DNA from: a virus
Taxonomy: Duplodnaviria; Caudoviricetes
Strand: one strand, 5' to 3'
DNA: 64,000 nucleotides
IMG/VR virus record: IMGVR_UViG_3300042363_001420
The notes beneath the pieces were generated by a model, which saw only the letters and a list, made by a program, of their open reading frames with translations, was not told where the DNA came from and did not search any database. Position 1 is the stretch's first letter. Each line of letters starts with the position of its first letter. This document shows, piece after piece, positions 13,554 through 18,607 of this stretch. The translations under genes and the position numbers were made by a program.

Positions 13554-14651
13554 TTATTCTAATACATTTATCATGATTTCCAGGCTGTTTTTATTAAATT
13601 CTTCAGCGCAGCGATAAAAACCTCCTGAAACAATCCAGTGTTTATTGTGCAAACAAGAATCCCTGGTTTGTTGATAAAGATCGTTGGTAGTAATATTATT
13701 CAAAGATTTTATAGTGTTAGTCAACTTGACAAGACGGTCTAAGTCACCCACTATCAGATCAAAAGAAAGGTCAAGACTGTAGTTAAATTTAAATCCAAAT
13801 TTCTCAAGAGTCTGATATGTATTCGACTGTCCATTGGCCAAAAACGCAGTTTCCCCTAACAAACATTTAAGAGTTTTTTCTGTTATAAAAGGTCCCGGTA
13901 ACTGACGATCTACAAGTAACGAATAGTTCCAACTTTCGTTGGTAATGTTTATTGCAGCACTTTGATAGGCTAAATGATGATAATCGTACAACAAGGTTAT
14001 ATTATTTTTTTCAACAACAAACTTGTTGTCCAGTGTTTTTTGATAAACTTCGAATTTTTCTAAAAAAAGATTTTTGTAAAAATTAACAATTTCATTGTCA
14101 GTATCTTGCCAATTATGAACATTTTTATTTTCAATCCAGTTGTGTAAACTGTAGTAAACATCGTTGTAATCGATGTGTTCGAGCACAGCAGACAATGCAA
14201 CTGATTTGCTATAAGTTACTCGGTTAGTAAGAACACTGACTTTTTTGTCAACGGATTTTACAACATCGGATCCAAACTGTTTTAACATTCGATTCAGCTG
14301 GTAATGCCATTCCACACAGGGTAGAAAATGTATGTTAGTGTAAGATTCAAAATAGTTGTAGCTGTTGGGCAAACAACAAACAAAAATTAAACCATCTACT
14401 AGATTGGCTTGACGTTCTATCCAACCGACATTGGGTCCTTCAGTTTTAATTAAGTAATAAGAATACCCATCGGGTAGATCCTTATGTTGAGTGTACCAAT
14501 TGATGCTGGCCCAAAAAACATTCTTACCGATCAATGGTCTTAGAAAATTCCAGTCGTGAAAATCAGTAGAGTCAGTTATTTCTTCCCAAATTTCTGGAAG
14601 AAAGAAATGATTTGAATTTTTGATCAATTTAAATCCTGTTGTATGTAACAA
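13554..14651 (-). CDS. GT10-like glycosyltransferase-fold protein, paralog 2 (TTG start uncertain)
   Basis: AINITNES...FITEKTLKCLL...TLEKFGF...DLSFD. Confidence 0.5.
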   Translation of the reverse strand: MLHTTGFKLIKNSNHFFLPEIWEEITDSTDFHDWNFLRPLIGKNVFWASINWYTQHKDLPDGYSYYLIKTEGPNVGWIERQANLVDGLIFVCCLPNSYNYFESYTNIHFLPCVEWHYQLNRMLKQFGSDVVKSVDKKVSVLTNRVTYSKSVALSAVLEHIDYNDVYYSLHNWIENKNVHNWQDTDNEIVNFYKNLFLEKFEVYQKTLDNKFVVEKNNITLLYDYHHLAYQSAAINITNESWNYSLLVDRQLPGPFITEKTLKCLLGETAFLANGQSNTYQTLEKFGFKFNYSLDLSFDLIVGDLDRLVKLTNTIKSLNNITTNDLYQQTRDSCLHNKHWIVSGGFYRCAEEFNKNSLEIMINVLE

Positions 14652-14662
14652 TTATAACAGAT

Positions 14663-14770
14663 AAAAAAGAAAAATAAAACCCCCTGTTTTCAAAACAAGG
14701 GTAGCGAATCCTGTTTCGATGGCCGGGGGTGCCAGACGCCTTAGGCTGCTAACGCAGACGGTCCTAAGGG
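14663..14770 (-). ncRNA. Candidate cis-regulatory structured RNA ending in an intrinsic terminator
   Basis: CCTTAGG/CCTAAGG stem enclosing CTGC-GTTA-GCAG; terminator CCCTTGTTT/AAACAGGGG plus T tract; competing helix GAAACAGG/CCTTGTTTT. Confidence 0.55.
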
Positions 14771-15474
14771 GATGTTCTGATTTTAGCTAACTTCAGCCAA
14801 GACAAAGTTTTAATCCAAAACCAACCGATGTCAAATTCCCACCACATGCGACTCAGCTTGGGATTGGCTGCATCCAAATGATGGTTATTATGTAATTCCT
14901 CACCGCCAATGACAATACCCCAGGGTATTAAATTGGTACTGCAATCCTTAGAGTCGCCGTTTCTGTATCCCCACCAATGTCCTAATCCGTTGACTACACC
15001 TGCTGCCCAAAACGGAATCCAAGCCATTTGCATCAGCCACATAACAATACCCCATCCATTAAACAAGGCAGTTTCGATGATCAGCAACAACAAGACACCT
15101 ACTACGCTGTAGCGACTGTAAACGTTGCGTTCCATCCAGTCGTTGGGTGTGGCATAGCCCAGTCGATCAACCATTTCTTGATCTTTAGAAGCTGAATTAT
15201 ACAACCAAGCACCGCCTAGCAACACACGCCAGATGCCGTGTATATGTGGACTATGAGGATCTCCAACTCGTTCACATTTTTGATGGTGTAATCTATGTAC
15301 CGCTACCCACTCTTTAGTGACCATGCCTGTGGTCAACCATAGCCAAAAACGCATCACATGTGATACTGTAGGATGCAGTTCGACTGATCTGTGTGCTTGA
15401 CTACGGTGTAGGAATATAGTCACTGACAATATAGTCAAGTGAGTCATTATTAAAACCAAAATTAATTCTGTCAT
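14764..15474 (-). CDS. Membrane fatty acid desaturase (delta-9 type)
   Basis: His boxes HRSQAH, HRLHH, HNNHH; WEFDIGW. Confidence 0.93.
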   Translation of the reverse strand: MTELILVLIMTHLTILSVTIFLHRSQAHRSVELHPTVSHVMRFWLWLTTGMVTKEWVAVHRLHHQKCERVGDPHSPHIHGIWRVLLGGAWLYNSASKDQEMVDRLGYATPNDWMERNVYSRYSVVGVLLLLIIETALFNGWGIVMWLMQMAWIPFWAAGVVNGLGHWWGYRNGDSKDCSTNLIPWGIVIGGEELHNNHHLDAANPKLSRMWWEFDIGWFWIKTLSWLKLAKIRTSP

Positions 15475-17096: not shown

Positions 17097-17501
17097 TTAT
17101 TTTGTTTTGCTTGCAACATTTCGTGCAGCACCCTGGCGATCGGGATTCTTGTCTTTGACACGTTTGCGTCGTACTGCTGCTGCTATAGCACTCTTACCAC
17201 CAGACGCACGTAGGCTGGCAGCACGACTCTTGCTTAGACACTTGGGTTTGCCTTCGCCGGGTTTACGATCTCCGCATTTGCCAATTCTTTCGCCTTTGGT
17301 GTTGTATCTATCCCAACCACCGCCTCCAGCACCACCACCTTTGCCTGTACCAAACCAGTCGCGTAGATTTTCTGCTAGGTCTTCGTTTTTGTTGCGACCG
17401 GCACAATGCGCTTTTTGGCTAAAGCCCTTGGGATTGGAGCAGTTGATGCTGCTCTTGTATTTTTTACTCCACGCCTCGGCTACGAATTCATCGGCTCTCA
17501 T
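17097..17501 (-). CDS. Basic putative internal head protein (MRADEFVAE leader); start revised
   Basis: ATGA coupling; modules WSKKYKSSINCSNPKGFSQKAHC and LRDWFG...KPKCL. Confidence 0.7.
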   Translation of the reverse strand: MRADEFVAEAWSKKYKSSINCSNPKGFSQKAHCAGRNKNEDLAENLRDWFGTGKGGGAGGGGWDRYNTKGERIGKCGDRKPGEGKPKCLSKSRAASLRASGGKSAIAAAVRRKRVKDKNPDRQGAARNVASKTK

Positions 17502-18607
17502 TTTTTGCTCTTGTTGCCCCAGTTGGCAGCACCCACCTTTCGGCATTTTACCAAAGCTCCGGATGCATAAGCACTGGGCCAAATCTTGTAGCGACTTTTT
17601 ACTTTGTTATAGCAGGCGTCTTTGCCGGCTTCGTCGAGGTAGTCGGCCGATTCTGTCTGAGTACGACGTCGTGCGCAGTACATTTCACAGGCCATGACAG
17701 CTTCGTCCAAGTTGTTAAACTTGCTGTTGGCTGTTTTGTTTTTGATCGACACACGGAACCCGTCGTCTTCGTTGCCGTGGATCTGTATTTCATGTCCGTC
17801 ATCTGTGGTCACAGTTTTGACTGGTGGACCCATTTGATCACCAGGTGCCTTAGCTGCCAACTTGTCTATCAGATCAGGATCTTTTTTAATCTCTTTGCCG
17901 ATGTCGCTCAAGTAGTCTCCTAATCGAGCTTTTAGTTTAGTGATGATATCTTCTTTGGTGATATCTTCTTTGAATATCCAGCCGGGTGGTGGAGTTTTTG
18001 TTACATAGTGACTAGCTATATTATCACCTTGTATAACAACCACCTTGTACTCGCCTTTGGCATTGGGACCTGTTACGCTTTGAATACGTTTTTGGAAATC
18101 ATGTGAGTCTTTGCTGGGATCTGATCCCATAGTTGTAGTTAAAGTCCGATCACTTTTTATAGAAGTATCATATCCAGATGTTCCCCAGCTGGGATCAAAC
18201 TTGTCAGTGGTTTGAGCTTGGGCGCCGCCGCCGAACGCAGCAGCACCAGCAAGAACGGCACCTGCTACTTTCTGCTTTATACCTTCTTCAACGCTTTCAT
18301 CATAGTGCCCGGGCTGTGCTTGGGCTTCTTCGTAACCGGCCATCCACTGTGCATGCTCAGCTGTGCCGGGCTTGTACGGACATGCAGTTTCGTCTTGCCC
18401 GGCTCGATGACCAGCACGCCAGCCTTGATCATAAGGATCTTTGCTGCTGATACTTTCGTTGGCGCCCACAGCATAACCAGTCATAGGATGACGAGGATCT
18501 GTGGGGCTGTTTAATACGCTTATTTTTTTCGGACGGAACATAGCAGGCAGCTGCGGAACCGAACGTTGTTGTTGATTAAGAGACTCTAAAAGTTGATTTA
18601 TTCTCAT
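17498..18607 (-). CDS. Modular putative internal head protein containing an RMF-like segment
   Basis: MRINQLLES leader; YDQGWRAG...ACPY...WMAGYEEA; C-terminal DACYNKVKSRYKIWPSAYASGALVKCRK. Confidence 0.65.
   Translation of the reverse strand: MRINQLLESLNQQQRSVPQLPAMFRPKKISVLNSPTDPRHPMTGYAVGANESISSKDPYDQGWRAGHRAGQDETACPYKPGTAEHAQWMAGYEEAQAQPGHYDESVEEGIKQKVAGAVLAGAAAFGGGAQAQTTDKFDPSWGTSGYDTSIKSDRTLTTTMGSDPSKDSHDFQKRIQSVTGPNAKGEYKVVVIQGDNIASHYVTKTPPPGWIFKEDITKEDIITKLKARLGDYLSDIGKEIKKDPDLIDKLAAKAPGDQMGPPVKTVTTDDGHEIQIHGNEDDGFRVSIKNKTANSKFNNLDEAVMACEMYCARRRTQTESADYLDEAGKDACYNKVKSRYKIWPSAYASGALVKCRKVGAANWGNKSKK

Follow-up and report, generated by a model that had tools for sequence, protein, structure and literature searches.

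A pseudoknotted phage RNA at the 3' end of a desaturase gene with conserved complementarity to the helix 69 region of 23S rRNA

We analyzed a stretch of 64,000 nucleotides (nt) from the IMG/VR virus record IMGVR_UViG_3300042363_001420 (Duplodnaviria; Caudoviricetes), hereafter the window, which comes from a jumbo phage related to Atu_ph07, Phosso and Serratia phage BF (47-50% identity of the DNA polymerase; phrog_262). On its minus strand, at 14778-14675, an RNA element of approximately 100 nt is embedded in the 3' end of the transcript of a fatty-acid desaturase homolog. The original prediction for this locus was a riboswitch or attenuator in which a shared strand would form either an antiterminator or a terminator ahead of a biosynthetic island. 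The main feature of the element, missing from that prediction, is its complementarity to 23S rRNA. The features of the element and of the upstream gene are as follows:

14675..14778, minus strand: RNA element, match to covariance model R1 (cmsearch; 22.4 bits, E = 3e-4, model positions 1-100)
14764..15474, minus strand: upstream gene from the list of open reading frames (ORFs), fatty-acid desaturase homolog (PF00487, E = 6e-10; >590 relatives in IMG/VR)
14769-14763 with 14745-14739, minus strand: 7-bp stem read from the sequence, containing the desaturase TAG
14758..14769, minus strand: antisense block 1 (motif 1), 12 nt, exact reverse complement of E. coli 23S nt 1919-1930 (local alignment 12/12)
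14746..14757, minus strand: P2 hairpin from the predicted fold, 4 bp with a 4-nt loop, and ACCGU bulge; P2 covaries, with 95.5% of alignment cells paired
14735..14745, minus strand: cis mask, seven bases identical to 23S 1924-1930, pairing with block 1
14720..14734, minus strand: P3 hairpin, 4 bp with a 7-nt C-rich loop (14730-14724) that pairs with 14686-14679 (pseudoknot)
14690..14719, minus strand: P4 hairpin from the predicted fold, 10 bp with a 10-nt loop; the stem covaries
14710-14700, minus strand: antisense block 2 in the P4 loop, exact 11-nt loop motif, nine bases of which are the exact complement of 23S nt 1929-1937
14679..14689, minus strand: A-rich linker and pseudoknot 3' strand, pairing with the P3 loop; the core pairs covary across the family
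14661..14679, minus strand: U-rich tract directly 3' of the pseudoknot helix (terminator scan), probable intrinsic termination site and RNA 3' end
14681..14701, minus strand: alternative hairpin between the P4 3' strand and the tail (terminator scan; 9 pairs; -11.1 kcal/mol on its own), window-specific

The stop codon of the desaturase gene (TAG, 14766-14764) falls within block 1. What had been described at this place on the minus strand, namely the 7-bp stem containing that stop codon, the bulge, the small hairpin and the opposed runs of five C and five G, is all present, as are the two alternative pairings of the shared strand and the U-rich tract after the downstream hairpin (sequence, terminator scan and fold). 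The minimum free energy (MFE) of the segment is -39 kcal/mol (z = -2.85 against dinucleotide shuffles, 2 of 200 of which fold equally well). In the MFE fold the shared strand pairs upstream, forming P4, and the C5 run (14729-14725), opposite the G5 run (14684-14680), forms a helix enclosing the 10-bp hairpin. The architecture consists of a 5' hairpin domain (P1/P2), a P3 loop that forms an H-type pseudoknot with the 3' tail, and P4 nested within the pseudoknot. A tRNA-like reading, with block 1 as the anticodon loop and the P4 loop as the T loop, was rejected: the P4 loop lacks the T-loop signature, and ARAGORN found no tRNA or tmRNA anywhere in the window.

Two short motifs, namely the 5' motif over the stop codon and the one in the loop of the 10-bp hairpin, recur in the IMG/VR locus L001, in a stretch that precedes a homolog of the window's downstream gene. 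Each is unique in the window, which rules out a phage-polymerase promoter or a repeated terminator. A gapped pattern of both motifs, run against IMG/VR, found at least 120 loci, with 113 distinct elements among the matches listed. A second, independent scan used a pattern of the P3 loop and the pseudoknot tail only and likewise found at least 120 IMG/VR loci, yielding 138 usable elements among the matches listed, which were chosen independently of the antisense motifs to avoid circularity; counts out of 113 or 138 below refer to these two sets of matches. Among approximately 185,000 prokaryote species, represented by one genome each, the two-motif pattern was found in only two contigs, from two metagenome-assembled genomes that are without assembled rRNA.

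Covariance model R1 was built from 24 homogeneous members of type A and a hand-drawn structure; a hand-structured model was required, as MAFFT and RNAalifold on the unrefined alignment gave only P3 and a part of P4. In 97 of 100 sources R1 detected a single element at each locus, and its match to the element in the window, recovered again in a pooled search, is the sole significant one in the 64 kb. In the 97-sequence alignment, which was fitted to the nested helices and is hence biased towards them, 89.7% of cells pair (63.8% after shuffling), and compensatory changes, with both sides altered, occur at 23 of the 26 pairs. The covariation score is 0.499 (versus 0.137); none of 500 shuffles reach it, and slid controls range from 0.02 to 0.07. 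P3 is paired in 99.7% of cells, and each of its pairs has 30-47 sequences with compensatory changes. The three core pairs of the pseudoknot, which were added outside the model and are free of its bias, also covary. The covariation supports four helices and an H-type pseudoknot, and the frequent G-U pairs identify the folded strand as the one from which the flanking genes are read.

The family is not a catalogued one. E-value scans of Rfam 15 with the window and with type-A and type-C relatives gave matches at chance level only, which agrees with the earlier failure to match the element to a riboswitch or ribozyme class. BLASTN of the window locus and of a type-A element against the INPHARED phages gave no match, and no description of this RNA was found in the searched literature. 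Judging from sequence and covariation, the element in the window is almost certainly a member of a large, uncatalogued family of RNAs from phage metagenome contigs and adopts the fold described above. Copy numbers are low: five contigs of 138-353 kb hold 1, 2, 0, 1 and 1 copies, and the window holds one. A second, degenerate copy in a jumbo-phage genome (L210:1501-1616, approximately 76906-77021 of the complete 352,754-bp record G002) keeps P3, the pseudoknot and the P4 core and has a 5' domain without antisense block 1.

Throughout the family the unpaired bases are the most conserved, while all stems drift. The most conserved unpaired bases include the two antisense blocks, which together are antisense to E. 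coli 23S nt 1919-1937, that is, the 3' strand of helix 69 and its neighbor. Block 1 targets the helix 69 3' strand and the adjoining junction, and the target of block 2 directly adjoins it on 23S. An 18-mer spanning both targets occurs once in the E. coli rrlH operon, at 23S nt 1920-1937. In the window, a 7-nt core of the P4 loop is complementary to 23S 1930-1936, and the pair closing this loop covaries in the family, switching from G-C to A-U in 14 of 138 elements. By a rough count, the chance that a 12-mer and an abutting 9-mer would both be complementary to one rRNA site is far below 1e-6.

The same site is matched across the family. The 5' half of approximately 127 of the 138 elements has its longest exact antisense run, of 10-15 nt, inside 23S 1917-1933, and the longest run of P4 lies at 1929-1937 in 82; shuffled P4 segments gave runs of 7.7 nt on average, at scattered sites. 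The 11-nt core of the 5' motif is exact in 90 elements and the P4 loop in 78. The 5' half of relatives is antisense to 23S 1906-1933, and many of them reproduce helix 69 together with its 3' flank, in antisense, over the entire 5' domain. Many relatives thus have a P2 that is helix 69 in antisense form; P2 of the window has diverged. Local alignments to 23S gave 22/24 matches at 1910-1933 for L213 and 18/21 at 1908-1928 for a member of the pseudoknot-less type C.

A second class of P4 loops (class iii; 7 of 138 elements) is antisense to 23S 1968-1979, in the same 23S domain. Class iii elements also have an 11-nt block antisense to 1825-1835; the two targets are the two strands of helix 67, and their complements are mutually paired in the phage RNA. 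Relatives of this class are L217, L226, L248, L251, L258, L272, L278, L254, L287 and L293. In the window, a 7-nt stretch that overlaps the 3' part of the mask is antisense to 23S 1828-1834, in the 5' strand of helix 67.

Over its 33 nt (1910-1942), the target does not differ between E. coli and any of the 27 Bacteroidota genomes with an rRNA match (61 sampled), and the invariance of the loops in the face of drifting stems is explained by the invariance of this target. The window combines 12 + 9 nt of conserved complementarity to abutting 23S segments with a favorable cofold: on cofolding with 23S 1895-1950, the gain over the separate folds was -8.2 kcal/mol in the window, -15.2 in type A, -12.7 in type C and -28 in the Vibrio phage PWH3a-P1, energies that leave aside the pseudoknot and the ribosome context. 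Running duplexfold against the whole 23S rRNA gave long-range structures without meaning. An exact 9-nt complementarity of the P3 hairpin to E. coli 16S 519-527 (part of the 530 loop), seen in members such as L145:1576-1675 (minus strand), is unproven and may be due to chance: the search pattern imposed it, and the sequence is of low complexity, covaries with the tail and is absent from the C-rich loop of the window.

A reverse search, with the 23S segment against genomes of isolate phages, found a 22/24 antisense copy of helix 69 in the Vibrio phages PWH3a-P1, qdvp001, vB_VpaM_R16F, vB_VibM_10AMN and P018-4. Both mismatches retain G-U pairing, and the copy is followed by a hairpin with the 8-nt core of the family in its loop. 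No annotation covers the gap in which the copy is located, nor the small ORF that precedes it (in PWH3a-P1, L297:1493-1606; NC_020863, approximately 80879-80992). About 20 short INPHARED records (H16-H35) contain a 100% copy of the 46-nt 23S query; five are annotated as 23S ribosomal RNA, most being unannotated, and these records with an identical 23S segment look like contamination by host rDNA.

The element in the window belongs to a self-masked subtype, type B, defined by a 7-nt copy of 23S 1924-1930 after P2 that pairs with block 1. A dedicated scan found 56 type B loci with approximately 39 distinct elements. Their P3 loops and tails comprise at least 12 sequences, each with its own matching partner, and the longest loop-tail helix averages 5.4 bp when the tail is from the same element and 3.8 bp when it is from another member. 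All relatives tested have the same minimum-energy architecture, and a U tract directly follows the pseudoknot 3' strand in 11 of 19 type B loop/tail types, including the window, where, on the transcribed strand, a G/C-rich helix runs straight into a U tract and so forms a predicted terminator. The conserved arrangement, as read from these sequences, is a pseudoknot-closed (branched) intrinsic terminator.

The alternative hairpin has a different distribution. Its energy is -11.1 kcal/mol in the window and -6.6 in L179, and it is absent in L088, L129, L173 and L094; it arises in the window because the tail there resembles the P4 5' strand. Thus, the putative antiterminator is P4, which covaries family-wide, whereas the putative terminator hairpin is strong only in the window. 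As a G/C helix abuts the U tract in either fold, both conformations would terminate. Of the earlier description of an unclassified switch or small RNA, the unclassified structured RNA stands, and the switch, for which no conserved on/off platform is seen, is not supported.

The region following the element in the window is organized as follows:

14651..14656, minus strand: TATAAT-like hexamer 3' of the U tract, read from the sequence and absent from the promoter scan list
13554..14627 or 14651, minus strand: downstream gene of 357-365 aa, with AGGA at 14637-14634 ahead of a TTG at 14627

The hexamer is a possible promoter of the downstream gene. The family of this gene has no Pfam or PHROG match and, as one of the two most frequent downstream neighbors, follows the element in about ten loci, after any upstream gene (L141, L147, L158, L172, L187, L197, L199, L200 and L001 among them). 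Elsewhere in the window, a 369-aa ORF (17498-18607, minus strand) has a below-threshold match to PF04957 (ribosome modulation factor; E = 5e-5, residues 59-96), a second possible ribosome-directed function in this phage.

Approximately 95 of the 113 loci have a co-oriented ORF whose end lies either 4 nt into the 5' motif or 5-15 nt ahead of it. A co-oriented gene follows downstream in 67 loci, a convergent one in 23. The neighboring proteins are diverse, forming 66 upstream and 51 downstream clusters. The commonest downstream neighbor (23 loci) is a protein of 86-89 aa (phrog_12534; more weakly phrog_639, 'transcriptional regulator'), encoded, for example in L087:2027-2284, approximately 74 nt past the element with a TTGAC box between them. 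Many elements have a TTGAC box or an ATAAATA-like box within about 10 nt downstream. In many type-A loci (L084, L153, L178) an ATAAATA(CTA)-like box is followed after 2-6 nt by an ATG without a visible Shine-Dalgarno sequence, which looks like a T4-type late promoter for leaderless or near-leaderless mRNAs. Because the neighbors are diverse and a contig holds 0-2 copies, the element is not the leader of a particular class of genes, nor is it a general-purpose terminator; its behavior is that of a single-copy RNA gene attached to the 3' end of whichever ORF comes before it. A placement tied to the downstream biosynthetic island does not agree with these diverse and partly convergent neighbors or with the promoter-like boxes after the element.

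The element belongs to no family of loop-presenting antisense RNAs, 3'-UTR-derived small RNAs (sRNAs; UTR, untranslated region), T-box elements or group II introns, although it resembles several of them. CopA/CopT (R1) and RNA I/RNA II (ColE1) are structured RNAs that show short exact complements in loops, and recognition starts at loop contacts. The phage element likewise displays antisense sequence in loops, and its presumed target, helix 69, is also a hairpin, of which P2 of many relatives is the image; it differs in that this target belongs to host rRNA instead of a cognate mRNA or primer encoded opposite, in being trans-encoded, in its two permuted blocks and in its covarying pseudoknot core. 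Like the 3'-UTR-derived sRNAs CpxQ and SroC, it directly follows a co-oriented stop codon, has no obvious promoter of its own and, in type B, ends in a predicted intrinsic terminator, but it is far more elaborately folded and its conserved seed matches rRNA rather than mRNAs.

U3 and other snoRNAs are encoded by eukaryotic or archaeal cells, depend on proteins and contain C/D or H/ACA boxes. They share with the element several short segments complementary to conserved rRNA and a pairing that would need nascent or unfolded rRNA, whereas the element is phage-encoded, with no C/D or H/ACA boxes seen and no known partner protein. T-box RNAs contact an RNA in trans at two points, an internal loop of a 5' stem and a distal loop, beside a terminator, a layout similar to that of the element; the element differs from them in having no conserved terminator/antiterminator and no tied downstream gene, in a partner that would be rRNA and not tRNA, and in the absence of an Rfam T-box match. 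The topology of the preQ1-II riboswitch, where the pairing of a hairpin loop with the 3' tail, past an A-rich linker, encloses a second hairpin, is similar, but there is neither sequence or model similarity nor an association with queuosine genes.

We consider it somewhat probable, on the grounds of the conserved complementarity, that the element acts by pairing with host 23S rRNA. The U tract after the pseudoknot helix would end transcription and produce a 3'-UTR-derived small RNA, the two antisense blocks of which would base-pair with the helix 69/70 region of the host 23S rRNA. Since helix 69 stands out from the surface of the free 50S subunit but lies buried once the 70S ribosome has formed, the free 50S subunit, or nascent or unfolded 23S rRNA, is a plausible target. 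In type B, the cis mask may tune or gate the pairing. Candidate outcomes are blocked subunit joining, blocked 50S assembly, marking of the rRNA for cleavage, or shielding of the site. The more specific proposal, that a dedicated RNA, produced by large aquatic phages and by some cultured Vibrio phages, hybridizes to helix 69/70 of free 50S subunits or nascent 23S rRNA and thereby controls subunit joining, assembly or rRNA decay, type B having a built-in target mimic as a gate, is a tentative one, to which we would assign slightly less than an even chance.

Several observations weigh against a pairing with 23S rRNA. The class ii P4 loops, about a quarter of the members, have no rRNA complementarity above background, and block 1 substitutions among the 138 elements show no clear bias to wobble-preserving changes. 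As the target is invariant in the sampled genomes, no covariation in trans with host 23S can show. Helix 69 of the mature 50S subunit already engages nt 1920-1924 in base pairs, and this region lies buried within the 70S ribosome. The two blocks stand in permuted order compared with a contiguous antisense strand, and a hairpin loop of 9-11 nt cannot pair over its full length unless the stem opens. In the window, seven bases of block 1 are paired in cis with the mask in the predicted fold, and this 7-bp helix roughly halves the computed gain from pairing.

Four other explanations were considered. The first, a 3'-end module acting in cis only, as a pseudoknot-closed terminator or exonuclease barrier whose rRNA complementarity is a relic of captured antisense rDNA, is unlikely in our view. 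It would agree with the location of the element within approximately 15 nt of a co-oriented stop codon in most loci and with the U tracts at the ends of the masked and pseudoknot-less subtypes, and the colinearity of the 5' half with antisense 23S 1906-1945 (L085/L112) does point to an origin by capture. However, a general terminator or stabilizer would be expected to recur, while genomes of up to 353 kb carry one or two copies; the loops of a functionless relic should have decayed, while the unpaired bases are the most conserved; and the loops of class iii complement another part of the same 23S domain.

Secondly, the element could be a cis-acting sensor or tether for rRNA or the 50S subunit, similar to a T-box or to the calicivirus TURBS (termination upstream ribosome-binding site): capture at the end of the upstream ORF would alter termination or aid re-initiation on the next gene, which often has no Shine-Dalgarno sequence. 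We regard this as quite unlikely. The self-masked design does permit strand exchange between the cis mask and 23S, the stop codon is within or just ahead of block 1, and at many type-A loci the next ATG lies 10-13 nt past the element with no visible Shine-Dalgarno sequence. On the other hand, a sensor or tether would hardly serve the convergent downstream genes of 23 loci or the many genes preceded by a TTGAC promoter-like box of their own; it has no conserved expression platform, and it would be expected more than once per genome, as all genes need translation.

The third explanation, for which we see little probability, is that the loops are recognized by a phage or host protein, or guide a nuclease or mobile element to rDNA at the I-CeuI homing hot spot. 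The boundary of the two 23S targets, 1928/1929, coincides with what we take to be the top-strand cut of I-CeuI, and the two-loop topology resembles the EBS1/EBS2 (exon-binding site) recognition of group II introns. Yet no conserved protein gene lies beside the element, which is too small for an intron ribozyme and has no Rfam intron or ribozyme match, and the two substitutions in the copy of the Vibrio phages keep G-U wobbles, which are useful to RNA-RNA pairing only.

Finally, a metabolite riboswitch or attenuator, in which a ligand would choose P4 or the alternative terminator and so set read-through to the glycosyltransferase/radical SAM (S-adenosylmethionine) island, is very improbable: the competing hairpin ahead of the U tract in the window, the compact, aptamer-like pseudoknotted fold with invariant loops and the radical SAM gene two genes downstream are outweighed by the lack of conservation of that hairpin in the nearest relatives, by the pseudoknot helix adjoining the U tract, so that either fold would terminate, by the diversity of neighbors including convergent ones, by the promoter-like box between the element and the next gene in many relatives and by the absence of an Rfam match, and the complement of 23S in the invariant bases would be left unexplained.

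In terms of annotation, what looked like a riboswitch becomes a probable small-RNA gene with a predicted terminator. The cultured Vibrio phages are a usable laboratory system and make the question of pairing directly testable. Helix 69 forms the central inter-subunit bridge, contacts tRNAs as well as release and recycling factors, and is among the most conserved RNA sequences. If the element does pair with 23S rRNA, the phage RNA would be the first natural antisense RNA against the functional core of the bacterial ribosome, and would represent a new viral route to the translation machinery, independent of the host since the target is invariant.

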